The translations under genes and the position numbers were made by a program. The notes below the pieces were generated by a model that was not told the origin of the DNA, searched no databases, and saw nothing but the letters and a program-made list of their open reading frames with translations. Of a DNA stretch of 41,752 nucleotides, positions 3,101 to 41,149 are shown one piece after another. Numbering within the stretch: position 1 is the stretch's first letter; each line of letters opens with the position of its first letter. Origin of the DNA: Nemertoderma westbladi (Eukaryota; Animalia; Xenacoelomorpha); assembly GCA_032718475.1 (NCBI GenBank), contig JAUCBJ010002596.1, positions 1 through 41,752 of the forward strand, given 5' to 3'.

Positions 3101-6100
3101 TGCTGTACATGGCTTTCATTTGTGTTTGATGTACATGGCTTTCATTTGTGTTTGCTGTATATGGCTTTCATTTGTGTTTGCTGTATATGGATTTATTTTG
3201 TGTTTGCTGTACATGGCTTTCATTTGTGTTTGCTGTACATGGCTTTCATTTGTGTTTGCTGTATATGGCTTTCATTTGTGTTTGCTGTATATGGATTTAT
3301 TTTGTGTTTGCTGTACATGGCTTTCATTTGTGTTTGCTGTATATGAATTTATTTTGTGTTTGCTGTACATGGCTTTCATTTGTGTTTGCTGTACATGGCT
3401 TTCATTTGTGTTTGCTGTACATGGCTTTCATTTGTGTTTGCTGTACATGGATTTATTTTGTGTTTGCTGTACATGGCTTTCATTTGTGTTTGCTGTACAT
3501 GGCTTTCATTTGTGTTTGATGTACATGGCTTTCATTTGTGTTTGCTGTATATGGCTTTCATTTGTGTTTGCTGTATATGGATTTATTTTGTGTTTGCTGT
3601 ACATGGATTTATTTTGTGTTTACTGTGTACGTGTATATGGATATATTTTGTATTTGCTGTACATGACTTTCATTTGTGTTTGCTGTACATGGCTTTCATT
3701 TGTGTTTGCTGTATATGGATTTATTTTGTGGTTGATGTATATGGATTTATTTTGTGTTTGCTGTACATGGCTTTCATTTGTGTTTGCTGTACATGGCTTT
3801 CATTTGTGTTTGCTGTATATGGCTTTCATTTGTGTTTGCTGTATATGGATTTATTTTGTGTTTGCTGTATATGGATTTATTTTGTGTTTGCTGTATATGG
3901 ATTTATTTTGTGTTTGCTGTACATGGCTTTCATTTGTGTTTGCTGTACATGGCTTTCATTTGTGTTTGCTGTATATGGATTTATTTTGTGTTTGCTGTAC
4001 ATGGATTTATTTTGTGTTTGCTGTACATGGCTTTCATTTGTGTTTGCTGTATATGGATTTATTTTGTGTTTGCTGTACATGGCTTTCATTTGTGTTTGCT
4101 GTATATGGATTTATTTTGTGTTTGCTGTACATGGCTTTCATTTGTATTTGCTGTATATGGATTTATTTTGTGTTTGCTGTACATGGATTTATTTTGTGTT
4201 TGCTGTATATGGATTTATTTTGTGTTTGCTGTACATGGATTTATTTTGTGTTTGCTGTACATGGCTTTCATTTGTGTTTGCTGTACATGGATTTATTTTG
4301 TGTTTGCTGTACATGGCTTTCATTTGTGTTTGCTGTACATGGCTTTCATTTGTGTTTGCTGTACATGGCTTTCATTTGTGTTTGCTGTACATGGATTTAT
4401 TTTGTGTTTGCTGTACATGGCTTTCATTTGTGTTTGCTGTACATGGCTTTCATTTGTGTTTGATGTACATGGCTTTCATTTGTGTTTGCTGTATATGGCT
4501 TTCATTTGTGTTTGCTGTATATGGATTTATTTTGTGTTTGCTGTACATGGATTTATTTTGTGTTTACTGTGTACGTGTATATGGATATATTTTGTATTTG
4601 CTGTACATGACTTTCATTTGTGTTTGCTGTACATGGCTTTCATTTGTGTTTGCTGTATATGGATTTATTTTGTGTTTGCTGTACATGGCTTTCATTTGTG
4701 TTTGCTGTATATGGATTTATTTTGTGTTTGCTGTACATGGCTTTCATTTGTGTTTGCTGTACATGGCTTTCATTTGTGTTTGCTGTACATGGCTTTCATT
4801 TGTGTTTGCTGTATATGGCTTTCATTTGTGTTTGCTGTATATGGATTTATTTTGTGTTTGCTGTACATGGCTTTCATTTGTGTTTGCTGTACATGGCTTT
4901 CATTTGTGTTTGCTGTATATGGATTTATTTTGTGTTTGCTGTACATGGATTTATTTTGTGTTTGCTGTACATGGCTTTCATTTGTGTTTGCTGTATATGG
5001 ATTTATTTTGTGTTTGCTGTACATGGCTTTCATTTGTGTTTGCTGTATATGGATTTATTTTGTGTTTGCTGTACATGGCTTTCATTTGTATTTGCTGTAT
5101 ATGGATTTATTTTGTGTTTGCTGTACATGGATTTATTTTGTGTTTGCTGTATATGGATTTATTTTGTGTTTGCTGTACATGGATTTATTTTGTGTTTGCT
5201 GTACATGGCTTTCATTTGTGTTTGCTGTATATGGATTTATTTTGTGTTTGCTGTACATGGCTTTCATTTGTGTTTGCTGTATATGGATTTATTTTGTGTT
5301 TGCTGTACATGGATTTATTTTGTGTTTGCTGTACATGGCTTTCATTTGTGTTTGCTGTATATGGATTTATTTTGTGTTTGCTGTACATGGCTTTCATTTG
5401 TGTTTGCTGTATATGGATTTATTTTGTGTTTGCTGTACATGGCTTTCATTTGTATTTGCTGTATATGGATTTATTTTGTGTTTGCTGTACATGGATTTAT
5501 TTTGTGTTTGCTGTACATGGATTTATTTTGTGTTTGCTGTATATGGATTTATTTTGTGTTTGCTGTACATGGATTTATTTTGTGTTTGCTGTACATGGCT
5601 TTCATTTGTGTTTGCTGTACATGGATTTATTTTGTGTTTGCTGTACATGGATTTATTTTGTGTTTACTGTGTACGTGTATATGGATATATTTTGTATTTG
5701 CTGTACATGACTTTCATTTGTGTTTGCTGTACATGGCTTTCATTTGTGTTTGCTGTATATGGATTTATTTTGTGGTTGATGTATATGGATTTATTTTGTG
5801 TTTGCTGTACATGGCTTTCATTTGTGTTTGCTGTACATGGCTTTCATTTGTGTTTGCTGTATATGGCTTTCATTTGTGTTTGCTGTATATGGATTTATTT
5901 TGTGTTTGCTGTATATGGATTTATTTTGTGTTTGCTGTATATGGATTTATTTTGTGTTTGCTGTACATGGCCTTCATTTGTGTTTGCTGTACATGGATTT
6001 ATTTTGTGTTTGCTGTGTATATGGATATATTTTGTATTTGCTATAGACATGTATTACTGAATAATTACACTTTATTTTAAATACAGGTGTCGAGCATATC

Positions 6101-9626: not shown

Positions 9627-12600
9627 GCTGCAACCTGAAGGTAGGGGTGGGCGCTACTCCTATCTGCAACACGAAGGTATGGGTGGGCGCTAATCCTATC
9701 TGCTACCCGAAGGTTGGGGTGGGCGTTACTCCATCTGCTACCCGAAGGTAGGGGTGGGCGCTACTCCTATCTGCTACCCTAAGGTAGGGGTGGGCGCTAC
9801 TCCTATCTGCTACCCGAAGGTAGGGGTGGGTGCTACTCCTATCTGCTACCCGAAGGTAGGGGTGGGCGCTCCTCCTATCTGTCACCCGATGGTAGGGGTG
9901 GCGCTACTCCTATCTGCTTCCCGAAGGTAAGGGTGGGCGCTATTCCTATCTGCCACCCGATGGTAGCGAAGGCGCTACTCTTATCTGCTACCCGAAGGTA
10001 AGGGTGGGCGCTACTCCTATCTGCCACCCGATGGTAGGGGTGGGCGCTACTCATATCTGCTACCCGAAGGTAGGGGTGGGCGCTACTCCTATCTGATACC
10101 CGAAGGTAGGGGGTTGGCGCTACTCCTATCTGCTACCCGAAGGTAGGGGGTGGGCGCTACTCCTATCTGCTACCCGAAGGTAGGGGTGGGCGCTACTCCT
10201 ATCTGCTACCCGAAGGAAGGGGTGGGCGCTACTCCTGTCTGCTACCGGAAGGTTGGGGTGGGCGTTAATCCATCTGCTATCCGAAGGTAGGGGTGGGCGC
10301 TACTCCTATCTGCTACCCGAAGGTAGGGGTGGGAGCTACTCCTATCAGCTATCCGAAGGTAGGGGTGGGCGCTACTCCTATCTGCTACCCGAATGTAGGG
10401 GGTGGGCACTACTCCTATCTGCTACCCGAAGGTAGGGGTGGGCGCTACTCCTATCTGCTACCCGAAGGTAGGGGTGGGCGCTACTCCTATCTGCTACCGG
10501 AAGTTTGGGGTGGGCGTTAATCCATCTGCTACCCGAAGGTAGGGGTGGGCGCTACTCCTATCTGCTACCCGAAGGTAGGGGTGGGAGCTACTCCTATCTG
10601 CTACCCGAAGGTTGGGGTGGGCGTTACTCCATCTGCTACCCGAAGGTAGGGGTGGGCGCTACTCCTATCTGCTACCCGAAGGTAGGGGTGGGCGCTACTC
10701 CTATCTGCTACCCGAAGGCATGGGTGGGCGCTACTCCTATCTGCTACCCGAAGGTAGGGGTGGGAGCTACTCCTATCTGCTACCCGAAGGTTGGGGTGGG
10801 CGTTACTCCATCTGCTACCCGAAGGTAGGGGTGGGCGCTACTCCTATCTGCTACCCGAAGGTAGGGGTGGGCGCTACTCCTATCTGCTACCCGAAGGTAG
10901 GGGTGGGTGCTACTCCTATCTGCTACCCGAAGGTAGGGGTGGGCGCTCCTCCTATCTGCCACCCGATGGTAGGGGTCGGCGCTACTCCTATCTGCTTCCC
11001 GAAGGTAAGGGTGGGCGCTATTCCTATCTGCCACCCGATGGTAGCGGTGGGCGCTACTCCTATCTGCTACCCGAAGATAAGGGTGGGCGCTACTCCTATC
11101 TGCCACCCGATGGTAGGGGTGGGCGCTACTCATATCTGCTACCCGAAGGTAGGGGTTGGCGCTACTCCTATTTGATTCCCGAAGGTAGGGGGTGGGCGCT
11201 ACTCCTATCTGCTACCCGAAGGTAGAGGGGTGGGCGCTACTCCTGTCTGCTACCGGAAGGTTGGGGTGGGCGTTAATCCATCTGCTACCCGAAGGTAGGG
11301 GTGGGCGCTACTCTTATCTGCTACCCGAAGGTAGGGGTAGGAGCTACTCCTATCAGCTATCCGAAGGTAGGGGTGGGCGCTACTCCTATCTGCTACCCGA
11401 AGGTAGGGGGTGGGCGCTACTCCTATCTGCTACCCGAAGGTAGGGGTGGGCGCTACTCCTATCTGCTACCCGAAGGTAGGGGTGGGCGCTTACTCCTATC
11501 TGCTACCGGAAGGTTGAGGTGGGCGTTAATCCATCTGCTACCCGAAGGTAGGGGTGGGCGCTACTCCTATCTGCTACCCGAATGTAGGGGGTGGGCGCTA
11601 CTCCTATCTGCTACCCGAAGGTAGGGGTGGGCGCTACTCCTATCTGCTACCCGAAGGTAGGGGTGGGCGCTACTCCTATCTGCTACCGGAAGTTTGGGGT
11701 GGGCGTTAATCCATCTGCTACCCGAAGGTAGGGGTGGGCGCTACTCCTATCTGCTACCCGAAGGTAGGGGTGGACGCTACTCCTATCTGCTACCCGAAGG
11801 TAGGGGTGGGCGCTACTCCTGTCTGCTACACGAAGGCATGGGTGGGCGCTACTCCTATCTGCTACCCGAAGGTAGGGGTGGGAGCTACTCCTATCTGCTA
11901 CCCGAAGGTTGGGGTGGGCGTTACTCCATCTGCTACCCGAAGGTAGGGGTGGGCGCTACTCCTATCTGCTACCCGAAGGTAGGGGTGGGCGCTACTCCTA
12001 TCTGCTACCCGAAGGTAGGGGTGGGTGCTACTCCTATCTGCTACCCGAAGGTAGGGGTGGGCGCTCCTCCTATCTGCCACCCGATGGTAGGGGTCGGCGC
12101 TACTCCTATCTGCTTCCCGAAGGTAAGGGTGGGCGCTATTCCTATCTGCCACCCGATGGTAGCGGTGGGCGCTACTCCTATCTGCTACCCGAAGATAAGG
12201 GTGGGCGCTACTCCTATCTGCCACCCGATGGTAGGGGTGGGCGCTACTCATATCTGCTACCCGAAGGTAGGGGTTGGCGCTACTCCTATTTGATTCCCGA
12301 AGGTAGGGGGTGGGCGCTACTCCTATCTGCTACCCGAAGGTAGGGGGTGGGCGCTACTCCTATCTGCTACCCGAAGGTAGGGGTGGGCGCTACTCCTATC
12401 TGCTACCCGAAGGTAGGGGTGGGCGCTACTCCTGTCTGCTACCGGAAGGTTGGGGTGGGCGTTAATCCATCTGCTACCCGAAGGTAGGGGTGGGCGCTAC
12501 TCTTATCTGCTACCCGAAGGTAGGGGTAGGAGCTACTCCTATCAGCTATCCGAAGGTAGGGGGTGGGCGCTACTCCTATCTGCTACCCGAAGGTAGGGGG

Positions 12601-14885
12601 TGGGCGCTACTCCTATCTGCTACCCGAAGGTAGGGGTGGGCGCTACTCCTATCTGCTACCCGAAGGTAGGGGTGGGCGCTTACTCCTATCTGCTACCCGA
12701 AGGTAGGGGTGGGCGCTACTCCTGTCTGCTACCGGAAGGTTGGGGTGGGCGTTAATCCATCTGCTACCCGAAGGTAGGGGGTGGGCGCTACTCCTATCTG
12801 CTACCCGAAGGTAGGGGTGGGCGCTACTCCTATCTGCTACCCGAAGGTAGGGGTGGGCGCTACTCCTATCTGCTACCCGAAGGTAGGGGTGGGCGCTACT
12901 CCTATCTGCCACCCGATGGTAGTGGTGGGCGCTACTCCTTTCTGCTTCCCGAAGGTGGGGTAGGCGCTACTAATATCTGCTACCTGAAGGTAGGGGTGGA
13001 CGCTACTCCTGTCTGCTACACGAAGGTAGGGGTGGGCGCTACTCCTATCTGCTACCCGAAGGTAGGGATTGGCGGTACTCCTATCTGCTACCCGAAGGTA
13101 GGAGTGGGAGCTACTCCTATCTGTTACACGAAGGCATGGGTGGGCGCTACTCCTATCTGCTACCCGAAGGAAGGAGTGGGAGCTACTCCTATCTGCCACC
13201 CTATGGTAGGGGTGGGCGCTACTCCTTTCTGCTTCCCGAAGGTGGGGTAGGCGCTACTAATATCTGCTACCTAAAGGTAGGGGTGGGCGCTACTCCTGTC
13301 TGCTACACGAAGGCATGGGTGGGCGCTACTCCTATCTGCTACCTGAAGGTAGGGGTGGGCGCTACTCTTATCTGCTACCCGAAGGTAGGGGTGGGCGCTA
13401 CTCCTATCTGCTACCCGAAGGTAGGGATTGGCGGTACTCCTATCTGCTACCCGAAGGTAGGAGTGGGAGCTACTCCTATCTGTTACACGAAGGCATGGGT
13501 GGGCGTTACTCCATCTACCACCCGATGGTAGGGGTGGGCGCTACTCATATCTGCTACCCGAAGGTAGGGGTGGGCGCTACTCCTATCTGATACCCGAAGG
13601 TAGGGGGTTGGCGCTACTCCTATCTGCTACCCGAAGGTAGGGGGTGGGCGCTACTCCTATCTGCTACCCGAAGGTAGGGGTGGGCGCTACTCCTATCTGC
13701 TACCCGAAGGAAGGGGTGGGCGCTACTCCTGTCTGCTACCGGAAGGTTGGGGTGGGCGTTAATCCATCAGCTATCCAAAGGTAGGGGTGGGCGCTACTCC
13801 TATCTGCTACCCGAAGGTAGGGATTGGCGCTACTCCTATCTGCTACCCGAAGGTAGGGGTGGGCGCTACTCCTATCTGCTACCCAAAGGTAGGAGTGGGA
13901 GCTATTCCTATCTGCTACACGAAGGTATGGCTGGGCGGTACTCCTATCTGCTGCCAGAAGGTAGGGGTGGGCGCTACTCCTATCTGCTACCCGAAGGTAG
14001 GGGTGGGCGCTACTCCTATCTGCTACCAGAAGGTAGGGGTGGGCGCTACTCCTATCTGTTACCCGAAGGTAGGGGTGGGTGCTACTCCTATCTGCTACAC
14101 GAAGGTATGGCTGGGCGGTACTCCTATCTGCTACCAGAAGGTAGGGGTGGGCGCTACTCCTATCTGCTACCCGAAGGTAGGGGTGGGCGCTACTCCTATC
14201 TGCTACCAGAAGGTAGGGGTGGGCGCTACTCCTATCTGCTACACGAAGGTATGGGTGGGCGCTACTCCTATCTGCTACACGAAGGTATGGGTGGGCGCTA
14301 CTCCTATCTGCTACCCGAAGGTAGGAGTGGGAGCTATTCCTATCTGCTACACGAAGGTATGGCTGGGCGGTACTCCTATCTGCTACCAGAAGGTAGGGGT
14401 GGGCGCTACTCCTATCTGCTACCCGAAGGTAGGGGTGGGCGCTACTCCTATCTGCTACCAGAAGGTAGGGGTGGGCGCTACTCCTATCTGCTACACGAAG
14501 GTATGGGTGGGCGCTACTCCTATCTGCTACCCGAAGGTAGGGATTGGCGCTACTCCTATCTGCTACCCGAAGGTAGGGGTGGGCGCTACTCCTATCTGCT
14601 ACCCGAAGGTAGGAGTGGGAGCTATTCCTATCTGCTACACGAAGGTATGGCTGGGCGGTACTCCTATCTGCTACCAGAAGGTAGGGGTGGGCGCTACTCC
14701 TATCTGATACCCGAAGGTAGAGGGTGGGCGCTACTCCTATCTGCTACCCGAAGGTAGGGGTGGGCGCTACTCCTATCTGCTACCAGAAGGTAGGGGTGGG
14801 CGCTACTCCTATCTGCTACACGAAAGTATGGGTGGGCGGTACTCCTATCTGCTACCCTAAGGTAGGAGTGGGCACTACTCCTATC
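9627..14885. repeat. 36-bp GC-rich minisatellite, about 145 copies, with higher-order structure
   Basis: Consensus CTGCTACCCGAAGGTAGGGGTGGGCGCTACTCCTAT, head-to-tail with no spacers. It produces the 12-aa periodic ORFs (YPKVGVGATPIC, LLPEGRGGRYSY). Confidence 0.98.
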
Positions 14886-17355: not shown

Positions 17356-18270
17356 GTACAGTATTAGTAGGCCCTAATCCCTATATACTGTAGGTATTTT
17401 TTTTTTACCAGGGGGCCCGTTTGAACCCATGTCATGGTAGAATAAGGTCGTTTTCCGCTGTTATAATTATTATATGTCATTGTACGCGAGTATTAGTAAA
17501 TTAATATTGCCAATATGCTATTAATTAATACCACTGTGTACCGGTGAGTCAACAGAGCGGACTGGAGGCCAAAGTTAATATTGCTTATTTATTATTTGAT
17601 AATATTTTATATTTTTCAAAATTTAACTATCTTATCTTGAAAATGACAAGGATTTATATACAATTTAGTGAACTACTCGAAAAAGAAGGTCAATTTCTAC
17701 CTCGTAAAATTAAATATGGCCCAAGGGACTGTATCCCTGGATACAATGTTGTAAGTACCAGTTGGAAGTAAAAGTGTCTGAGTCTGTACTCCCAGATATT
17801 CCCATTGGCGATATCTCCTTTGCAGAAGTGAAGGCTGCTGCTGCAAAGAGCATCAAGACCAATCGTGCCAGTGGAGTAGAAATACCTGAGTGTTTAAAGC
17901 GTATCTATCCCATCATAGTAGACATGTACCGAACGGCAAGAGTCCCACAAGAAATGAAAACAAATAAGTTGGTGCCAGTTCCCAAGAAGGGCAACCTAAC
18001 ACTCTATGGTTCTTTTCGGGGAATCTCATTGATCTCGATTGCTGCAAAGCTATACAGTAGAGTTCTATTAAATAGCATCAGGGATCCCATTGAGAGACTG
18101 CTCCGTGGAAATCAGAATGGGTTCCGTAAAGGTCGTGGGACCATGGAGCCCATTTTGGCACTTAGAAGAATAATTGAAGAGTTATCAAAAAAGAAAGACA
18201 GGCATCTGGCTGTTATCTTTGTTGACTTCTTCAAGGCCTTTGATTCAGTCTCTCGCTCACGTATGTTCAG

Positions 18271-19676
18271 TAGGGCGGTGCATTTTTTACTTTTTTTCGA
18301 TTTCATTGTTCTACCGGTGCACAAAAGTTGCCAAATGGTAAAAAAAATAAGGCAAAAAAAATTTCTTTCAATTTCGTCTATATCTTCACGGATCCCAAGA
18401 GGGTTGAAATTTTGTGCCATCGCGATGCACCATAATGAAATTTATAACAATATAACACATTGATGAAAGATCAATGAGTCAAAAAAGAACTTCCTGCATA
18501 TATCAAATGTCATCAAATGGGTCCAAACTTAGTTAGATACCAAAATTTTAATTTTTGGATTAAGGGAAGTAGTGCCACAGGCACATGACCAGAACTTACT
18601 CTTTGGCGCAAGTGATGATTATTCTCAATTTTGGTGATGGACAACTTTTAGTTCTCCTACGGCATTAATATTATGCTCATTAGAACCGCAATGACCGATT
18701 TAGTGGAGGTAGCCACCATCAAAACAAGCATAGAGCGAATAGATCTTGATATATTGCAGAAAATGTAAAGTACGGCACAAGTCAACATTACCGCCTTGAT
18801 GATTTATAGACAAATACACAAAAATGTTACTTCTAATTATCTTAAGGCATCAAAAATATACACATCACTCCAACAAATTGATTTAGTGTATACAAACAAC
18901 TTCAAAATTAAAGAGTAGTGATTAATTCACTATAGTATTTGTACAAAATCTGTGGAATGGGTCAACTCAATATCAAGTATTAATTGGTGGACATAGTCTT
19001 GACATTTTGTAAAATAACTCAAGAACTAATGACTCTATTCTTAGTTTGAAGGTGTCTTCACCCACTATATCGATCATTTCTGTGATGTGTCTATTCGTGA
19101 TTCCTTGAGATAATTCAAAATATCATTTTTAGTATATTTGTCCATATCACATCAAGGTGGTAATGTAGACTTGTGCCGGACTTCACATTTTCTGCGATAT
19201 CTCAAGAACTATTCGCTCTACGTTTGTTTTGAAGGTGTCTACCCACTAAATCGGCCATTGCGGTTCTAATGAGCATAATATGAATGCAGTAGGAGAACTC
19301 AAACTTGGCCATCGCAAAAATTGAGAATAATCATCACTTGCGCCAAATGGTAGGTTCTGGCCATGTGCCTGTGGCACTAGTTCGCTTGATCTAATAATTA
19401 AAATTTTGGTATCTAACTAAGTTTGGACCCATTTGATGACATTTGATGCATGCAGGAAGTTCTTTTTTGAGTCATTGATCTTTCATCAATGTGTTATATT
19501 GTTATAAATTTCATTATGGTGTATCGCGGTGGCACAAAATTTCAACCCTCTTGGGATCCGTGAAGATATAGACGAAATATAAAGAAATTTTTTTGCCTTA
19601 TTTTTTTACCATTTGGCAACTTTTGTGCACCGGTAGAACAATGAAATCGAAAAAAAGTAAAAAACGCACCGCCCTA
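18271..19676. mobile_element. Non-autonomous long-TIR DNA transposon (hAT, possibly hATm-like) inserted in the RT
   Basis: Ends TAGGGCGGTGC...GCACCGCCCTA. About 600-bp inverted arms (18271-~18870 / ~19080-19676). 8-bp TSD ATGTTCAG/ATTTTCAG with one mismatch. Confidence 0.9.
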
Positions 19677-21040
19677 ATTTTCAGCATACTTTCATTATAT
19701 GGGATTCCTGATGAAATTATTGCAGCAATCAGATCAGTATACGATGGTTCGACAACACTTGTGTCTATTGTTGACGGTGACACAGAACCATTTGAAGTGT
19801 TATGGGGCGTCCTCCAGGGAGACACACTTGAACCATTCTTGTTCATAATTGTTGTTGACTATGTTCTACGCATGTCCTTAGATCATCAAAATGATGATGG
19901 GGTGATGATAACTCCACCTATTGGCTCCAGAAGTCGAGGAAATCCTGCCAAATACCTAACTGATCTAGACTTTGCTGATGACTTAGGAGTACTCTCAGAA
20001 TCACTAGAGGGAACTCAACGGCAGTAGTAGGGTCTTGGGCGGCTCTGCGACAGTTAGACCCCACTGACACCCATTGGGTGTCATATGACACCCAATTATC
20101 ACCCTATGGGTGTCATTGGGTGTCATTGGCGCCAGACTGTCTGGGTGACACCTCCCAATTAGGCTAATTAGACCCTAATTGAAAGGTGTCATCAATTAAT
20201 TAGTACAATTAAACCCTAACAGGTGTCATATGACTCCTAATTAGGGTTTAATTGATTATCCTAATTAATCAGACTGATTAGCGCCCTGACACACAATGGG
20301 TCATCAGTGTTGTCCAAGTGTCACAGAGCCGGGGGAAGAGGGTGTCATAAGTGACACCGCAGCTCTTTTATTCATTAATACTTATTTATTCGTATTTAAT
20401 TCTAAATTAATTATTCATTTGTACTTTATTTTAAATTAATTAATTGTATTACTTTTACTTTATACATTGATTTCTTAGCCATACTTAGCCATAGGGTATA
20501 CAGCTCCCCCACTGGCAACTAATTACTCTTATCTATATCCAGACAGCTTTATCGTTGACCTTTAACCCCCCAATTAGCTTTAACCAAGCAACAGCTTATT
20601 AATAATAGTTGTATCCAAGCGCCCCGCCCCCCCTCTCGTGACAGCTCTGATTACTAATTACTCTTACCTATATCCAACCGTCTGCAGGTCCATAGTCTGC
20701 CGCTAGAGGGCGTATTATCTGAAAATTAACATCTTCTCTAACTTTGTTATTTACAATCCGCAAAACTATGAAGTTATATTGCTTAAGAGTTCTAAGGGGC
20801 GAGCCATGAGGCAAGATGTTTGAGACTTATTTAGATATATTATTACTTAATTTGACCCCCCAATCGGCATCTACTACGGCATAGGCTATATCTTTTGCAG
20901 AGTCACAGAGTAGTATGAAGTTCCCCAGTCTGCCGCTAGAGGGCGAAATGTCTCAAAGTGAAAACCATACGGTAGCCATGAATTGGTTACTAGGCAATAA
21001 TACTGCATTTTGCAACGTTAGGCCTATTGCTGACCGAACG

Positions 21041-21122
21041 AAAACTGCCCTGGTTCATGCAGGGATCGAACCCATGACATACGGGAGATGTGAATTCAAC
21101 GCAACCACTACACCAAGGTGGA
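21041..21122 (-). ncRNA. tRNA-like Pol III unit / SINE head in the left TIR (mirror of 24510-24590)
   Basis: Minus strand: A-box TGGTGTAGTGG, B-box GGTTCGATCCC, then TTTT. Confidence 0.5.
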
Positions 21123-21185
21123 ACAGTAACCTTCGAATTTGTTCGTTGACGTTCGAATTTGTAAGACTCTCATTTAAGACCTGAC

Positions 21186-21776
21186 ACAGACTATGCCTCA
21201 CTGAGGCACTGAGGCATAGACTATGCCTCACTGAGGCACTGAGGCATAGACTATGCCTCAATGAGGCATAGACTATGACTCACTGAGGCATAGACTATAC
21301 CTCACTGAGGCACTGAGGCACTGAGGCATAGACTATGCCTCACTGAGGCATAGACTATGCCTCACTGAGGCATAGACTATGCCTCACTGAGGCATAGACT
21401 ATGACTCACTGAGGCATAGACTATGCCTCACTGAGGCATAGACTATGCCTCACTGAGGCATAGACTATGCCTCACTGAGGCACTGAGGCATAGACTATGA
21501 CTCACTGAGGCATAGACTTTGCCTCACTGAGGCATAGACTATGCCTCACTGAGGCACTGAGGCATAGACTATGCCTCACTGAGGCATAGACTATGCCTCA
21601 CTGAGGCATAGACTATGACTCACTGAGGCATAGACTATGCCTCACTGAGGCATAGACTATGCCTCACTGAGGCATAGACTATGACTCACTGAGGCACTGA
21701 GGCATAGACTATGCCTCACTGAGGCATAGACTATGACTCACTGAGGCATAGACTATGCCTCACTGAGGCATAGACT
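21186..21776. repeat. 22-bp palindromic tandem array in the left TIR
   Basis: Unit ACTGAGGCATAGACTATGCCTC. TGAGGCATAG-A-CTATGCCTCA is a perfect inverted repeat. Occasional 8-bp ACTGAGGC duplications occur. Confidence 0.95.
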
Positions 21777-22217
21777 TGCTTCACCATGGATGGGCTTTAC
21801 CACTGTACTCGCATCTGCTGTCTCATTGGCTGCTCGATGCCTCAGATTAAGGGTCTAAGGCCTTCAAGCTGATCATTTGCTTAGTTTTCTAATTAGAAGG
21901 TCGTGAGTTCGAACCCTAGAAGAGCATTATTCTTTTTCCTAGCTCTTGGCTAACTCTAGCATACACTAGCTTCGACTCTCCCAGCTATAGTGATAGTATG
22001 CAACCTTGGGAGTTAATGTGAGTAAAGGCCAAGAGATTAGACTTCAGGCTCCCTCTAATGGTTCATTCTTCTTAACTTTAGAAAATAGCACAACCCGTAT
22101 TTAAAGTTTTAAAAATTATGACTTAGTCGACCAATTTTCCAAGGTATATTATAAAACATATAATTTCTTGAATAAATAGGCCTAATAGTAATAAATATTG
22201 TGGGGTAAATACATTTA

Positions 22218-22326
22218 TAATACTAATATAATTATTATGGATAAATAGTCCTAATACTAATATAATTGTTATGGATAAATAGTCCTAATACTAATATAAT
22301 TGTTTTGGATAAATAGCCCTAATACT
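22218..22326. repeat. 34-bp tandem repeat x3 just downstream of the cargo ORF
   Basis: TAATACTAATATAATT(A/G)TT(A/T)TGGATAAATAG(T/C)CC at 22218, 22252 and 22286. Confidence 0.85.
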
Positions 22327-22341
22327 ATTATGAAAGGAACT

Positions 22342-23409
22342 TCAACAAACAAATGTCAATAGCGTCGTCCTGCGCGGGCATATACTGAACGAGAGTTTTT
22401 TTATCATAGGTCTTCGAAAATTAGTAAAAGCTGGTTGATTTACTTTACTTTCATCTTCCTCATTACCCAACTGTTTCTTAATTTTATTCAATTGCTCATT
22501 AATTTTCAGTAATTTACTTTTATTTCCCATAACCTGTCTTAATATCTCTTCTCTATTTTCCTCATTTTCTTCCATTTGTTTAATAAATTTCCGCATTTGA
22601 TTTTTGTTTCCTAATATTTGTCTCAATATCTCTTCTTTATTTTCATCATTCTCTTCTAAATGTTTAATACATTTCTGTAATTTAATTTTACTTCCTAGAA
22701 CTTGGGTCAATGTCGCCTCTTTATTTTCTTCATTTTCCTTCAAATGTTTAATAATTTTCCGCAATTGATTCTTATTTCCAAGTAATTGCCTCTTTATTTC
22801 CTCATTATCATCATTTTCATCCTCTTCTCCACTTTCCTGATCTTCACTTTCTTCACCCTCTTTCTGACCTTCACTTTCTTCATCCTCTTCCCCGCCTTCA
22901 CTTTCTTCATCCTCTTCCTGTTCTTCACTTTCTTCATCCTCTTCCTGTTCTTCACTTTCTTCATTCTCTTCCTGACCTTCGCTATCTTCACCCTCTTCCT
23001 GTTCTTCACTTTCTTCATCCTCCTCCTGATCTTCACTTTCTTTGTTCTCAACTTCACTCTCTTCAACTTCATCCTGACCTTCACTATTTTCATTCTCCAT
23101 CTCATCATCCTCTTCTTTTCCATCTTTCTCACTCAAAGTTTCCTCATTTTCTAGGGGTAACTGTTTTTGTATCCCTTTCAAAATATTCATAACTTTATGA
23201 AATTTATTTTCCATTGTCTGTTTTATATTTAATATATCACGCTCATCTCTCTTTTTCTTTTCATCTTCACTAAAAATATCTTCGGATTTTTTAAATTTTT
23301 TTGGTAATGGAGCCATTAGTTTTTCCTTTCTATGCGTTTCCATATGGCGAGATAAATTGTCTTGTCTCATTTCTTTATTACAAACCAAACAACTTTCATG
23401 TCTATGCAT
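22342..23409 (-). CDS. Cargo protein of the Polinton-like element: N-terminal C2H2-like zinc finger, acidic tract, 28-aa coiled-coil repeats (355 aa, unknown function)
   Basis: Intact intronless ORF starting at ATG with A at -3. Features: CLVC-x11-H-x3-H (CLVCNKEMRQDNLSRHMETH), basic PKKFKK, about 120 aa E/D-rich with 9-aa repeats, and four about 28-aa repeats (N-K/R-EE-I-LRQ-x-LG-NK...). Upstream promoter elements are present. Confidence 0.8.
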   Translation of the reverse strand: MHRHESCLVCNKEMRQDNLSRHMETHRKEKLMAPLPKKFKKSEDIFSEDEKKKRDERDILNIKQTMENKFHKVMNILKGIQKQLPLENEETLSEKDGKEEDDEMENENSEGQDEVEESEVENKESEDQEEDEESEEQEEGEDSEGQEENEESEEQEEDEESEEQEEDEESEGGEEDEESEGQKEGEESEDQESGEEDENDDNEEIKRQLLGNKNQLRKIIKHLKENEENKEATLTQVLGSKIKLQKCIKHLEENDENKEEILRQILGNKNQMRKFIKQMEENEENREEILRQVMGNKSKLLKINEQLNKIKKQLGNEEDESKVNQPAFTNFRRPMIKKLSFSICPRRTTLLTFVC

Positions 23410-23521
23410 TATATAGCAATGTCAATTAATAATATTGAATTTTAGCTAAATGATTTTACAAAATTTTAAATAAATTAAACTTTTATGAAAATAAATAAAA
23501 CTTTTTAATATAAAACTTAGA

Positions 23522-23647
23522 GAATGACTGGGAATGCGTTGAACGGGGGTTATTATAGAGGGAGGCTAGAATGGATTATCCAATCAGAGTGCGAGGGTGA
23601 GTTAGGCAGCCAATCAGGACTCGAGGGAGGAAAGTTAGACAGCCAAT
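23522..23647 (-). promoter_or_regulatory. Candidate Pol II promoter of the cargo ORF: 3 CCAAT boxes + TATA + Inr
   Basis: CCAAT at 23580, 23610 and 23643 (30 and 33 bp apart). Minus-strand TATAATAA starts at 23557. Inr TCATTC has A+1 at 23525, placing the TATA at -32. Confidence 0.6.
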
Positions 23648-23761
23648 GAGAGAGTAGATGCGAGTACAGTGGTAAAGCCCATCCATAGTGAGATAACGTC
23701 ACACTAACTCTCAAGGATAGTTATACTCACTATTCAAATATCCCTCGCAAACCAGATTCCC

Positions 23762-24443
23762 CTGAGGCACTGAGGCATAGACTATGCCTCACTGAGGCAT
23801 AGACTATGCCTCACCTGGGCACTGAGGCATAGACTATGCCTCAGCTGAGGCATGCTATGCCTCAGTGAGGCATAGTCTATGCCTCAGTGAGGCATAGTCT
23901 ATGCCTCAGTGCCTCAGTGAGGCATAGTCTATGCCTCAGTGAGGCATAGTCTATGCCTCAGTGCCTCACGTGAGGCATAGACTATGCCTCAGTGAGGCAT
24001 AGTCTATGCCTCAGTGAGGCATAGTCTATGCCTCAGTGCCTCAGTGAGGCATAGTCTATGCCTCAGTGAGGCATAGTCTATGCCTCAGTGAGGCATAGTC
24101 TATGCCCAGTCAGTGAGGCATAGTCTATGCCTCAGTGCCTCAGTGAGTCATAGTCTATGCCTCAGTGAGGCATAGTCTATGCCTCAGTGAGGCATAGTCT
24201 ATGCCTCAGTGCCTCAGTGAGTCATAGTCTATGAGTCATGCTTCAGTGAGGCATAGTCTATGCCTCAGTGAGGCATAGTCTATGCCTCAGTGAGGCATAG
24301 TCTATGCCTCAGTGAGGCATAGTCTATGCCTCAGTGAGGCATAGTTTATGCCTCAGTGAGTCATAGTCTATGCCTCAGTGCCTCAATGAGGCATAGTCTA
24401 TGCCCCAGTGAGTCATAGTCTATGCCTCAGTGAGGCATAGTCT
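23762..24443. repeat. 22-bp palindromic tandem array in the right TIR (mostly inverted relative to the left)
   Basis: Unit GAGGCATAGTCTATGCCTCAGT. The first few units (23762-~23850) are in the left-arm orientation. Confidence 0.95.
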
Positions 24444-24509
24444 GTGTCAGGTCTTAAATGAGAGTCTTACAAATTCGAACGTCAACGAACAAATTTGACG
24501 GTTACTGTT

Positions 24510-24590
24510 CCACTTTGGTGTAGTGGTTGCGTTGAATTCACATCTCCCGTATGTCATGGGTTCGATCCCTGCATGAACCAGGGCAGTTTT
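24510..24590 (+). ncRNA. tRNA-like Pol III unit / SINE head in the right TIR
   Basis: A-box TGGTGTAGTGG 24516-24526, B-box GGTTCGATCCC 24559-24569, T4 at 24587-24590. It resembles the head of the SINE at about 40792-40885. Confidence 0.5.
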
Positions 24591-27500
24591 CGTTCGGTCA
24601 GCAATAGGCCTAACGTTGCAAAATGCAGTATTATTTCCTAGTAACCAATTCATGGCTACCGTATGGTTTTCACTTTGAGACATTTCGCCCTCTAGCGGCA
24701 GACTAGGGAACTTCATACTACTCTGTGACTCTGCAAAAGATATAGCCTATGCCGTAGTAGATGCCGATTGGGGGGTCAAATTAAGTAATAATATATCTAA
24801 ATAAGTCTCAAACATCTTGCTTCATGGCTCGCCCCTTTGAACTCTTAAGCAATATAACTTCATAGTTTTGCGGATTGTAAATAACAAAGCTAGAGAAGAT
24901 GTTAATTTTAAATAATACGCCCTCTAGCGGTAGACAGGGGAACTTCATACTACTCTATGGCTCCGCAAAAGATATGGCCTATGCCGTAGTAGATGCCGAT
25001 TGGGGGGTCAAAATTAAGTAATAATATATCTAAATAAGCCTCAAACATCTTGCCTCATGGCTCGCCCCTTAGAACTCTTAAGCAATATAACTTCATAGTT
25101 TTTAAGGAAAACTGGTAAATGAGATGTGTTAATTACGCATACCTCGCAGTTTTAAGTAATTAATTATACAGTGGGTTAGATCGTTTTGAGAATAGGACCA
25201 TTGGAAAGAGCGCCCTCGATAACCTCAGTACAAAGAAAATTAATACGGATTAACCGGATATAGCTTGTTATTATAAAACATAAATTACAGTAGAACAATT
25301 AGGGTTGTAAATAAAAACAAATTAAATTGAAGATAAACTGTATATATAAACTTATGTATTAAAAGAGGGCCCTATTTAATTATACAGTATACTGAAAATG
25401 GTTAGCGATACCATAATTAGATTATCGATAGGGATGCGGTTTCCTTAAATGAGGCAATCCTGACGCAGCATAAAGAATTTTAAGAGGGGCCCCGATAAAT
25501 TGCTCATTCATGCGTAACTGGTAACCTAGGCGATAGCTTGTCTTAAGTTTAAGCCCTTTGCTAACATTATCTCCAAAATAGTTACCAGTAGGGGAGCTGT
25601 ATACCCTAGGGCTAAATAAGGCTGCAAGTCTATGGTTAGATGCTTCCAATAATGATCTCATTTAGTAGCGGTAAGTAATATAAAAACTAATTAATCTAAA
25701 AATAGAAATCAATGTATAAAGTAAAAGTAATACAATTAATTAATTTAAAATAAAGTACAAATGAATAATTAATTTAAAATTAAATATGAATAAATAAAGT
25801 AAAATAAAATATAGATAATTAATTAAAATTAAATATAAATAAATAAGTCTCAAACATCTTGCCTCATGGCTCGCCCCTTAGAACTCTTAAGCAATATACT
25901 GTAACTTCATAGTTTTGCGGATTGAAAATAACAAAGTTAGAGAAGATGTTAATTTTCAGATAATACGCCCTCTAGCGGCAGACTATGGAACTGCAGACGG
26001 CTGGATATAGGTAAGAGTAATTAGTAATCAGAGCTGTCACGAGAGGGGGGCGGGGCGCTTGGATTCAACTATTATTAATAAGCTGTTGCTTGGTTAAAGC
26101 TAATTGGGGGGTCAAAGGTCAACGAAAAAGCTGTCTGGATATAGATAAGAGTAATTAGTTGCCAGTGGGGGAACTGTATACCCTATGGCTAAGTATGGGT
26201 AAGAAATCAATGTATAAAGTAAAAGTAATACAATTAATTAATTTAAAATAAAGTACAAATGAATAATTAATTAAAATTAATGAATAAAAGAGCTGCGGTG
26301 TCACTTATGACACCCTCTTCCTCCTCTTTGCGACAGTTGGACATCACTGATGACCCATTGTGTGTCAGGGCGCTAATCAGTCTGATTAATTAGGTTAATC
26401 AATTAAACCATAATTAGGAGTCATATGACACCCGTTAGGGTTTAATTGTACTAATTAATTGATGATACCTGTCAATTAGGGTCTAATTAGCCTAATTGGG
26501 AGGTGTCACCCAGACAGTCTGGCGCCAATGACACCCATAGGGTGATAATTGGGTGTCATATGACACCCAATGGGTGTCAGTGGGTTCCAACTGTCACAAA
26601 GAGGAGGAAGACCCTACTACTAACGGCTCCTCAGATCATTAGAACATGCTGGTTCTAGTGTTGGTCTTTTTATTAACTCCAGAAAGACCAAAATTTTGAC
26701 AGTTAACTCTGAAAGTCCTCAGCAAGTATCTGATCGGATGAGCATAAGCTCAAAGGATGGTATGCTTGAGCTTGTGGACGACTTCTGTTACCTGGGATCA
26801 TGGATCAAGGCATGGGCAGCCTTGAATAGGCTTTCCTGGATTTGGAAGTCACCGAGAATTAATCGGAAACTTAAGGTCCGATTATTTAGAGCAGCAGTAG
26901 TTCCAGTACTCCTCTATGGGAGTCCATGCTGGGCTCTAACTACTGGGGACACCAAATCTCTGGATGGCACATTCACAAGAATGCTACGCCGGGTTCATTG
27001 TGTCAAGTACAATGCACACATCTCCAACCAGACACTATATAACATTGGAGGTGTCTCATTGGTTCCCCCAAGCTTGACACTAGAACAAAATCGCCTCCGC
27101 TTTGCAGGACATTGCTTTCGCCGTGAGGATCAGCCAGTGCATAATCTTGTACTTTGGCAGCCTCATGGAGTGAATAAGCAGGGTGGACAGCCCATGACTT
27201 TCCTGAGACGCATCTTAAAGGACACTGGCCTTGAAGATGCGGATGATCTAGCAAATGTCATGGGTGATAGGGAGTTGTGGCGGAGCAATTTTGTCGACAA
27301 GCCGGCACGCTTTCTTAAAATTGCAGCTGCAATGCAGCATGCCGATCCTAGTAGTAGTAGTAGTACCACACACACATAAGCAATGATGTGCTCTATAAGC
27401 ACCTCATTGCCAAAACCCAGCTTCACCCTGCACTCCCACCGTTTAAAGCTAGTCGCACTCTGTTATCGCCGATAGCCGGTTCACGACTGGTGTTTTAGCA

Positions 27501-34420: not shown

Positions 34421-36352
<1,932 letters not shown>

Positions 36353-38409: not shown

Positions 38410-39575
38410 GCTGGAATCAGGAGGTCATTTGAACGAGATAGACGAAAAAATATACCCGTAATTGAAGATGTGGAAAACATACCGGATGACCTAAGGATCA
38501 CGTATCGGGCCAAGATTGCAAATGCTGGGGATGTGTTTGAAGACGAGTTAATGATCATTTATCAAAGCTCAGACCCGAGTCCATTAATTATCATGGGTAG
38601 CATTGAAAATCTGGGTTGGTTACATAATGCTCCGGATATAGTGTGCGATGGAAACTTCAAGTACAACCCTCTAAAACCACATCCCTTCAATCAACTGTAT
38701 ACTAATCATGGATTTGTGTCAGGGGAATGCATGCCTTTGTTTTATGCACTAACTTCTAATAAAGACACTGAAACGTATAGACAGATAGAATTATATTTAA
38801 GACATTTAGCGATAAGATGATTGAGAATTTTGGAGATGTCGGCTTGCCAGGAACCAACGCCTGCACTTGGCACCTTGACTATGAAGATGCAGCCATTGCC
38901 TCATGTAAGTTTATTTTCCCTGATGCTCGAATCAAGGCAGCAAGGGGTGTTCGTTTCATTTCGTCAAAGCTATTGTGTCGAAAATTGGAGAGTTAGGCCT
39001 GAGAACAGCCTACCGTGACAACCCCGCAGTAAAGAGGTGGATTCGAAGGGTTGTAGCTCTTTGTATGTGGTTCCTGTCCCGCTGTCCCCTTAGTGCTTCA
39101 TGTCTTCGAGCAATTAAAGACAGATGAACCAGTTGTAGGACCACCCGGCGATATACAATTACGTGTTTTCATTGACTACTTTGTGTGGTGGCTGCGCCCT
39201 GATATGTTAGAAATATGGAACCATTACGACAATAATGGACCACGAACGACCAACCATGCGGAAGGTTGTCATAATGCTCTGCGAACGCATTTCCACCACA
39301 AACATCCTGATTTAGGGGAGTTCCTGTTTGTTGTTCAACAACTTATTCACAACTGCGCAATTCGGGGACGTCAATTATTGGTTGGCACAGCTGTAGCCCA
39401 ACCAAAGCGACCAAGTTATCTACGAATTGATCGCGAAATAAAGTTGGCGAGGGATGATCTTGCTTCTAAATTGGACCACATGGCAGACAACATTATTCCA
39501 ATCCTAATACCCCAGCTACTGTATCCATACCTTGATCGAATGGAAAAGTTAGTCGCAGGGAAATCATTGCTGTAA
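38410..39575 (+). pseudogene. Frameshifted MULE DDE transposase
   Basis: CDGNFKY..PFNQLYT.HG..PLFYAL..K..ETY (first D), LDYEDAA (second D, about 38874, other frame), KGCSFHF (CxxH, about 38942) and WNHY..PRTTNHAEGCHNAL (E) are spread over several frames. No N-terminal DNA-binding domain is seen. Confidence 0.85.
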
Positions 39576-40740: not shown

Positions 40741-41149
40741 CTAAAAGTAAAGTAAAAAAGTTTCCATCTTGACCTTGCTGCATTGGCAGATCGGTGTACC
40801 GTAGTGATTGTGTATTGAATTCACATCTCTCGGATCGGAGGTTGTATGTTCAATCCCCGCATCGACCAGTGTAGTTTTCGTTTCAGCACGAATGATTTCG
40901 AACAGCCCGGCACGAATGCTTTCGAACTGCCCGGCACGAACAGCCAGGGCGCATCTTGGCCTTGCATGTCAGCATGTCCTAAAGTGGTAACTAAATGAGT
41001 ACCGGTACTGGAGTTTACTCTGAGGAGTATAGTTCCGGGGAGACCGCACTGGAAATAAGTCGTTAGACTTTGTGCATAATCCTTCAGTCATTGGTGGCTT
41101 AACGCAGTATCGGCCCAAGAAAATTTACTTTTTACTTTACTTATTTTTT
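40741..41149 (+). mobile_element. tRNA-derived SINE with (TTTAC)n tail and 19-bp TSD
   Basis: TSD TCCC(C/T)GCTGTTGCAATGTT at 40722-40740 and 41150-41168, differing only at a CpG. Degenerate A box, B box GTTCAATCCC (about 40848), AAATGAGTACC (Nin/Deu-domain-like, about 40994), tail TTTACTTTTTACTTTACTT. An internal 24-bp tandem duplication is at about 40886-40940. Confidence 0.8.

Follow-up and report, generated by a model that had tools for sequence, protein, structure and literature searches.

What is the gene that occupies positions 22342–23409 on the minus strand of contig JAUCBJ010002596.1 from Nemertoderma westbladi (assembly GCA_032718475.1), and what kind of element carries it? The window that we analyzed comprises 41,752 nucleotides of this contig. 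A first-pass annotation, made from the sequence and giving no strand, had described a 355-codon open reading frame (ORF) at this position as the cargo of a mobile element. We find that this ORF, which ends in a TGA stop and whose product we refer to as P0001, is the sole gene of a discrete 6,599-bp insertion, in support of that description, and we think it probable that this gene has been under selection as part of a non-autonomous element of the Maverick (Polinton) type.

An insertion with Maverick-type ends and a single gene

The insertion interrupts the reverse-transcriptase frame of a long interspersed nuclear element (LINE), which extends to 20027 and restarts at 26624 (to 27379). At the left junction AACGGC is followed by AGTAGTAGGG, and at the right junction CCCTACTACT is followed by a second AACGGC. 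Throughout, contig counts are taken from four DNA runs of one organism, X1, X3, and X4 among them, whilst X5 is labelled as another organism. Paralogous LINE contigs that cross 20022 straight into the sequence beyond 26627 (76 in X1, 27 in X3, and 3 in X4) represent the empty site, and it is because of this empty site in other copies of the LINE that the limits of the insertion can be set at 20023–26621, with a 6-bp target-site duplication.

The two ends of the element are long terminal inverted repeats, which pair in three blocks when the sequence is compared with itself by BLAST (20023–20841 with 26621–25832 at 92%, 20695–21783 with 24935–23823 at 91%, and 21185–21832 with 24262–23640 at 82%). 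The right arm is ~0.9 kb longer than the left (24935–25832), with internal duplications of arm segments and an A+T-rich stretch containing tandem repeats of 25–78 bp. A unique center of ~21833–23639 lies between the arms and holds the 355-codon ORF only.

The arms themselves contain two kinds of repeated motif. Ten of the 11 matches to GGGTGTCAT in the window fall in two clusters within the terminal ~330 bp of the arms (0.25 expected by chance). Further in, each arm has an array of the 19-bp palindrome GAGGCATAG-W-CTATGCCTC, and all 47 window matches to this palindrome lie inside the two arrays (0 expected by chance). The centers of the palindromes are mostly 22 bp apart, and each array amounts to an 11-bp half-unit whose orientation alternates, with spacings of 10 bp and 12 bp. 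Between copies of the first palindrome there consequently sits a second, GCCTCA-S-TGAGGC (33 window matches). As a single strand, the left array folds on itself far better than shuffled versions do (z = −16.5).

Separately from these motifs, the same 89-residue frame, with words resembling the tRNA B-box, occurs in both arms (20885–21184 and 24447–24746). Rfam and ARAGORN gave no match to an RNA gene, even though B-box-like words are present in the arms and in the 3′ flank of the ORF. A 90-bp piece at 40801–40888, well outside the element, is 74% identical to an arm segment, and the arms may therefore include a module resembling a short interspersed nuclear element.

Passages of PMC8097293 give 5′-(AGT)2//(ACT)2-3′ as the commonest conserved end motif of vertebrate Mavericks, together with perfect 6-bp duplications and arms of 46–1447 bp, and a 6-bp duplication is typical of Polintons/Mavericks (PMC8969392; PMC10045372). 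The element described here begins with AGTAGT from 20023, ends with ACTACT at 26621, is flanked on both sides by AACGGC at this one insertion, and has long terminal inverted repeats, the arms exceeding the vertebrate range found in those passages. Polintons are defined by a protein-primed polymerase B and a retrovirus-like integrase (PMC5499653). A Pfam search of 42 ORF translations from the window, plus P0001, found neither gene in the element or elsewhere in the window, nor did it find capsid, packaging ATPase, or protease genes among the window ORFs; the only matches were to RVT_1, DUF6451 (weak), and nucleotidyltransferase families, all of them outside the element. Because it is without polymerase, integrase, and capsid genes, the element can be a non-autonomous derivative at most. 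From its ends and architecture, the most likely reading is a Maverick/Polinton-type element that is non-autonomous and would rely on the integrase of a helper for its movement. A link to Polintons or adintoviruses had been raised in the first-pass annotation; the duplication and the (AGT)2/(ACT)2 ends lend backing to the former, and the protein searches, which found no relative of the whole protein, returned no hit in either group.

In the source organism the family reaches a high copy number. Over the central 1.8 kb lie 2261 contigs in X1, 483 in X3, and 77 in X4, and the summed depth of the arm is ~5 times that of the center. Part of this excess comes from the two arms of each element, and the rest suggests that there are further derivatives without the gene.

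Two observations concern the arrangement of copies. An X4 contig (442 nt, depth 24) joins 23661, on the promoter side of the gene, directly to ~21841, on its 3′-flank side, which suggests a head-to-tail arrangement of the 1.8-kb gene unit in one copy at least, or a rearranged form without arrays between. An apparent joint of opposite strands at 21861/23640 was rejected as an artifact of cutting the analyzed stretch inside the inverted repeat, rather than a rearrangement. In addition, X5 (organism B) contains low-depth, near-identical pieces over window positions 22020–23677 (differing letters 3/161, 3/120, and 4/217); these may stem from contamination, from transfer, from a closely related organism, or from common descent of the family.

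Signs of selection on the ORF

By base composition, a frame of 355 codons would stay open with a probability of ~1e-15, and the remaining five frames contain 9–68 stops each over the span of the ORF. The acidic tract in the middle of the ORF is also open in two other frames (112–145 residues) and is, by itself, weak evidence for coding because of this. For the non-acidic parts on either side, by the same reckoning, the chance of an open frame is 2.6e-5 (N-terminal 104 codons) and 1.7e-7 (C-terminal 153 codons). The openness of the ORF thus exceeds chance.

Two sets of tandem repeats make up much of the frame. Tandem Repeats Finder located a 27-bp repeat at 22834–23042 (7.7 copies, 86% matches) and an 84-bp repeat at 22500–22779 (3.3 copies, 75% matches), both with 0% indels. 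In codons, these correspond to approximately eleven 9-residue acidic units (residues 105–203) and four 28-residue units (residues 203–314), with all units in frame, in agreement with the 9- and 28-residue repeats of the first reading.

The 28-residue repeats provide a first indication of selection. They are 75% alike in DNA, yet their residue pattern is kept, and silent differences amount to 0.46–0.74 per silent site compared with 0.14–0.35 for replacement differences (ratio 0.12–0.53). This silent excess is not present in the two other frames.

A second indication comes from variation among copies, for which we used 40 of the 134 variants (those shown by the program), 28 of which lie within codons. 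Over the whole ORF there are 10 silent and 18 replacement variants (P 0.009–0.09). Codons 1–312 have 9 silent and 10 replacement variants, where 15–23% would be expected to be silent (P 0.001–0.016); the split at codon 312 was set after inspection of the data, and codons beyond ~337 were read in the frame of the window copy, which is atypical. Given the post hoc split and the selected variants, we regard this silent excess as moderate support for selection.

Insertions and deletions point the same way. Counting those that reached at least a tenth of the depth in any run, we found six single-base sites in 773 flanking bases, whereas the 1,068 coding bases have one frame-shifting site, one −2/−1 pair three bases apart, and one −3 (frame-shifting sites, 1/1068 vs 6/773; Fisher P 0.046). 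The coding indels other than the frame-shifting site add up to multiples of three, and outside the C-terminal tail no common variant breaks the frame. The length of the acidic tract varies among copies, with a 135-base, and hence in-frame, skip in one contig; two single contigs have skips that are not multiples of three. The sole frame-shifting coding site is a run of A at ~22396, where ~61% of the X1 and X3 depth differs from the window by one base, and the sole covering contig in each of X4 and X5 is likewise one base off the window. This difference could be a homopolymer assembly error. At 22342/22343, every covering contig differs from the window. When the window is read in the other frame past the run of A, 12 more residues follow before a stop, so that both forms of the tail end within ~20 codons of each other.

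It had been proposed beforehand that random frameshifts in other copies, a ratio of replacement to silent substitution rates near 1 with no expression, or descent from a fragment of a known host gene would each speak against a functional gene. For the most part these conditions do not overturn the proposal. As described above, frameshifts are not random and are rarer in the ORF than around it, apart from the one site near the C-terminus, and silent changes are over-represented, even if the excess is modest over the whole ORF; in the protein searches described below, no host-gene relative was found.

The region 5′ of the ORF would suit a promoter for RNA polymerase II. Three inverted CCAAT boxes (ATTGG) start at 23647, 23614, and 23584 on the minus strand, 30–33 bp apart, and are followed on the coding strand by the TATA-like TATAATAA at 23557–23550. 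An initiator-like CCAGTCA lies 28 bases beyond TATAATAA, its A at 23529, and the ATG comes ~120 bases later. Contigs of X5 (n = 17, depth 2–5) also span the promoter and 3′ flank, and are consequently uninformative on transcription; that X5 is RNA is a guess.

The P0001 protein

The translation of P0001 reads C7-x2-C10-x11-H22-x3-H26 near the N-terminus, followed by PKKFKK, as first noted. We take PKKFKK to fit the pattern of a nuclear-localization signal. With Pfam nothing in P0001 scored over its cut-off, the best relevant match being zf-C2H2 at 12.8 bits (E 0.18; cut-off 25.2). A phmmer search of 1.84 billion representatives found no whole-protein relative: there were 8 hits at E ≤0.001, none of them at ≤1e-10, and five of the 8 were low-complexity matches to the acidic or repeat part. 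The other three, P0004, P0007, and P0009, matched residues 4–41 only.

Only a 24-residue finger module recurs elsewhere. P0004, P0007, P0009, and P0010 have it, mostly as a tandem pair, and the x11 spacing is kept in all of them. All four are short unnamed proteins from short contigs, and are 44–62% identical to the N-terminus of P0001, with 14 invariant columns. The zf-C2H2 cut-off is reached by P0007 (25.2), P0009 (26.9), and P0010 (25.5), and missed by P0004 (20.6 bits). Word-index searches with the whole protein, with residues 1–100, and with P0009 found nothing beyond P0007 and P0011. Scans of metagenome and viral proteins for the pattern gave 594 and 63 matches, respectively, none of which was confirmed, and a 28-base word from the arm had 0 matches in metagenomes.

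The N-terminus of P0001 also aligns to the consensus, ZBTB20, and Zif268 fingers (E 0.002–0.02), with one gap after a conserved hydrophobic residue, and all named hits among the Atlas look-alikes, which are leads only, are clusters of the C2H2 clan (0.85–0.90). The idea of an atypical C2H2 finger is supported insofar as the stretch aligns to DNA-binding fingers with a gap of one residue and belongs to a conserved module; it falls short at the Pfam cut-off. In the alignment, helix positions −1, 2, 3, and 6 are occupied by Arg, Asp, Asn, and Arg, respectively. Under the zinc-finger recognition code, a finger of this kind would presumably read GAG, which is the outer triplet of each palindrome half. 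We consider this a weak lead.

For the rest of the protein, AlphaFold2 run on the single sequence predicts a helix at residues 48–83 (block pLDDT 86–91 over residues 51–80), disorder at 87–196, and one long helix at 199–320 (pLDDT 83–94). The long predicted helix has unbroken heptads, with 54–62% hydrophobic residues at a/d positions compared with 28% overall; the register runs through 199–320 without a break because 28 residues equal four heptads. These predictions agree with the amphipathic repeats of the first-pass annotation, and add that the acidic tract would be disordered. We also asked whether helix 48–83 might be a further, diverged member of the 28-residue repeats, which would bring them to five, and rejected this candidate (z ≤1.7 compared with shuffles).

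A model for the gene product, and its alternatives

We propose the following model. Integration of the element would fall to a helper Maverick, and the gene would be transcribed from its own RNA polymerase II promoter, with three CCAAT boxes, a TATA-like element, and an initiator-like site. The product would enter the nucleus by way of its predicted signal, PKKFKK, and self-associate through the predicted 120-residue heptad helix. Its single C2H2-like finger would bind the phased palindromes of the two arms, on either side of its own gene, whilst the 100-residue acidic tract might act as a charged spacer, or as a tail that binds histones or other partners. Binding of this kind would resemble that of other transposons' accessory proteins, which join or protect ends. 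As a whole, this explanation (a non-autonomous Maverick-type element that encodes a nuclear, self-associating, array-binding finger protein) seems to us plausible, although we stop short of calling it probable. When the step in which P0001 binds the palindrome arrays of its own element is taken singly, we find it rather doubtful. We regard the assignment of the element as solid, though it rests on one insertion, and offer the function of its orphan protein as a hypothesis.

Several points weigh against the model, or against the reading of the ORF as a selected gene of a Maverick-type element. The superfamily assignment depends on the ends of one insertion. The silent excess over the whole ORF is modest and draws on 40 of 134 variants, and the boundary at codon 312 was placed after the fact. 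The C-terminal tail, with 1 silent and 8 replacement variants in codons 313–355, looks poorly constrained. In the window copy, the stop and the ~19 codons before it are atypical of the family, and there is no AATAAA or ATTAAA within 500 bases 3′ of the ORF stop. The putative finger falls below the Pfam cut-off (12.8 vs 25.2 bits), and its x11 spacing departs from the pattern C-x2-4-C-x12-H-x3-5-H by which C2H2 fingers are recognized. When AlphaFold2 was given a 5-row alignment, it returned the finger stretch as a helix rather than a beta-beta-alpha fold, at a pLDDT of 63, which is low confidence. The triplet GAG would be expected by chance in roughly 1/4 of 11-bp units. Finally, the target of a single finger may be protein or RNA rather than DNA; in the top Atlas cluster (score 0.87–0.90, a lead only), zf-met is found in 11% of members.

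Among the alternatives, the one to be taken most seriously, although we think it unlikely, is that the ORF is dead cargo, that is, a captured or de novo low-complexity frame that is merely carried, has no function for the element or the host, and is still open because of the youth of its copies and because stops seldom arise in GAA-rich repeats. The failure to find any whole-protein relative among 1.84 billion representatives (8 weak hits) would suit such a frame, as would the fact that ~1/3 of the protein is an acidic repeat whose DNA is open in two other frames, the weakly non-neutral balance of 10 silent to 18 replacement variants, and the divergent tail and stop of the window copy. However, it is difficult to reconcile with a passively carried frame that the non-repetitive N- and C-terminal parts are open against the odds of 2.6e-5 and 1.7e-7 given above, or that the 28-residue repeats are 25% diverged in DNA yet retain their residue pattern, silent changes being 2- to 8-fold in excess. 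Also against this reading, other proteins share the conserved finger module, the ORF has proportionally fewer frame-shifting indels than the sequence on either side of it, and a complete promoter-like layout lies at the right distance.

It is decidedly less likely that P0001 is a factor directed at chromatin or the host, with the acidic tract acting on histones or host regulators (as an anti-silencing, histone-chaperone-like, or DNA-mimic segment), and the finger and helix serving for targeting or oligomerization only, not for array binding. The tract, 100 residues of Glu, Asp, and Ser that are predicted to be disordered, would be suited to this role; its variable length among copies, with the 135-base in-frame skip in one contig, hints that overall charge counts for more than the precise sequence, PKKFKK conforms to a nuclear pattern, and a many-copy element would be expected to gain from escaping silencing. 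But nothing links the tract to histones, a Pfam search at E up to 10 matched P0001 to no chaperone family, be it nucleoplasmin, NAP, SET, or another, and the palindrome arrays that bracket the gene would be left unexplained.

Least probable of all is that the element is not of Maverick type and belongs to another superfamily with inverted repeats (for example, IS3EU/GingerRoot, a 6-bp hAT group, or a Foldback-like family), the ORF then being that family's accessory gene in an internally deleted copy: repeated subterminal 9-mers such as those of the element are typical of cut-and-paste transposons, and only one insertion was examined, but the six terminal bases equal the Maverick motif exactly at both ends, and the duplication of 6 bp differs from the 7 bp of Galileo and the 9 bp of Foldback. 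The 1.8-kb, internally repetitive arms do resemble those of Foldback/Galileo (PMC3573991), and exceed the 46–1447 bp given for vertebrate Mavericks (PMC8097293); IS3EU/GingerRoot, the other superfamily with 6-bp duplications, fits in the length of its duplication, but has ends of TA..TA or TG..CA (PMC10045372), not AG..CT.

Positions of features and other parts of the window

The features of the element and its gene are collected in Table 1.

Table 1. Coordinates in the window of the inserted element, its gene, and the parts of the predicted protein
Feature	Position	Strand	Basis
Left target-site duplication AACGGC (6 bp), in the LINE reverse-transcriptase frame	20017–20022		Junction reading
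Whole element, ends 5′-AGTAGT...ACTACT-3′	20023–26621		Junctions, empty site, self-BLAST
Right target-site duplication AACGGC	26622–26627		Junction reading
Left terminal inverted repeat arm, ~1.8 kb	20023–21832	+	Self-BLAST
Right terminal inverted repeat arm, ~3.0 kb	23640–26621	−	Self-BLAST
Left subterminal GGGTGTCAT cluster, 5 copies	20076–20348		Motif count
Right mirror GGGTGTCAT cluster, 5 copies	26307–26568		Motif count
Left array, 23 copies of the 19-bp palindrome GAGGCATAG-W-CTATGCCTC	21211–21761		Motif count, spacing
Right array, 24 copies of the palindrome GAGGCATAG-W-CTATGCCTC	23772–24428		Motif count, spacing
Promoter-like stretch 5′ of the ORF	23527–23651	−	Motif reading
ORF of P0001, with stop	22342–23409	−	Reading frame and translation
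Putative zinc-finger module, residues 7–26 (C-x2-C-x11-H-x3-H)	23332–23391	−	Translation, Pfam, alignments
PKKFKK, residues 36–41, basic cluster	23287–23304	−	Translation
Predicted helix, residues 48–83	23161–23268	−	AlphaFold2, single sequence
Acidic tract, ~eleven 9-residue repeats, residues 105–203, predicted disordered	22801–23097	−	Repeats, AlphaFold2
Four 28-residue heptad repeats, residues 203–314, within predicted helix 199–320	22468–22803	−	Repeats, AlphaFold2
C-terminal tail, residues 315–355	22345–22467	−	Copy variation
34-bp tandem repeat, 5.1 copies, just 3′ of the ORF stop	22158–22331		Tandem Repeats Finder

The LINE into which the element is inserted is represented by pieces of a reverse-transcriptase frame at 17714–18463, 19572–20027, and 26624–27379 on the plus strand (RVT_1, E 5.5e-11), and its tail has a weak match to DUF6451 that is below the cut-off (E 2.9e-4). 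It is extremely repeated, with a summed word depth of ~1.6 million in X1. The same LINE contains a second pair of inverted repeats at 18342–18706 and 19243–19607 (365 nt, 92% complementary, 536 nt apart), which may be another insertion of foldback type.

Two satellites occupy the left part of the window, one at 2884–6016 with a 26-bp unit (~120 copies, 88% matches) and one at 9628–14885 with a 36-bp unit (~146 copies, 89% matches), the latter having ~60% G+C compared with ~35% in the rest of the window. On the minus strand, 34421–36352 is an uninterrupted 643-codon frame for a non-canonical poly(A) polymerase resembling TENT4/PAPD5, with an MTPAP-like central domain (E 5e-20) and PAP_assoc (E 3e-14); its G+C content is ~57% in surroundings of ~30%, and it may be a retrogene or an intronless gene. 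Two further open frames on the plus strand, 38410–38820 and 39057–39575 (136 and 172 residues), have no Pfam match at E up to 0.1. They contain motifs that may resemble those of transposases of the MULE type.

Significance and relation to known systems

Mavericks/Polintons are usually studied as virus-like elements of 15–25 kb. Short derivatives without any core gene that have reached high copy numbers hardly appear in the searchable literature. In a literature search on their non-autonomous forms, which covered passages from main texts, no short, many-copy, single-gene derivative was described; one passage on such forms concerned Tlr1 elements. If the element depends on a helper, it would offer a handle on the DNA signals that the Maverick integrase and polymerase need, for which the (AGT)2 ends, the GGGTGTCAT clusters, and the palindrome arrays are candidates. 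If its gene is active, P0001 would be an accessory protein of a kind unknown for Mavericks, and a member of a family without annotated relatives; should the gene be dead cargo, the element would still be a useful new repeat family for the annotation of this genome. A bolder idea, to which we attach very little likelihood, is that of a satellite of Mavericks, in which a stripped-down, many-copy derivative has retained or acquired just one gene under selection. The protein, with a single finger that reads GAG, a coiled coil of 120 residues, and a polyacidic tail of 100 residues, would coat the arrays of both arms, so that a nucleoprotein results. This nucleoprotein might hijack the integration, replication, or packaging of the helper Maverick, or shield the element from silencing. 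If true, this would be the first case in a eukaryotic genome of a virus-like transposon with a single-gene "hyperparasite".

Compared with Mavericks/Polintons, the element shares the six terminal bases at both ends, the 6-bp duplication, and long terminal inverted repeats. It differs in being 6.6 kb long, where those elements are 12.7–24.6 kb, and in having no genes for a protein-primed polymerase, integrase, capsid, ATPase, or protease; in their place are 1.8-kb arms with palindrome arrays and a single orphan gene. Cargo in Mavericks is already known: in Caenorhabditis (bioRxiv 10.1101/2022.07.12.499685), a Maverick-type vehicle likewise carries a non-core gene. Unlike those Mavericks, the vehicle in our case lacks every core gene and is present in great numbers, and neither relatives nor a phenotype are known for its cargo. 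The Foldback-like elements FB and Galileo of Drosophila differ from the element in end motif and in the length of the duplication (9 and 7 bp), and their families rely on transposases of the P or MuDR type. What the element has in common with them is kilobase-long arms made up partly of short tandem repeats, and a short center (PMC3573991).

At the level of the protein, the putative finger shares with classical C2H2 fingers (PF00096) the Cys2-His2 ligands, the conserved hydrophobic positions, and a helix that can be aligned with those by which fingers read DNA. It differs from them in that the spacing from the second Cys to the first His is one residue shorter and in scoring below the Pfam cut-off, and AlphaFold2 does not fold it with confidence. 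A single finger beside a basic stretch, as in P0001, is also found in GAGA factor. Lastly, the accessory proteins of En/Spm (TnpA) and Harbinger (Myb-like) gather on subterminal repeats. P0001 has no sequence similarity to these proteins, which belong to other superfamilies, and its binding to DNA is only inferred here; like them, however, it would be a second, non-catalytic protein encoded by an element, and one that we propose may multimerize on the repeats of the arms.

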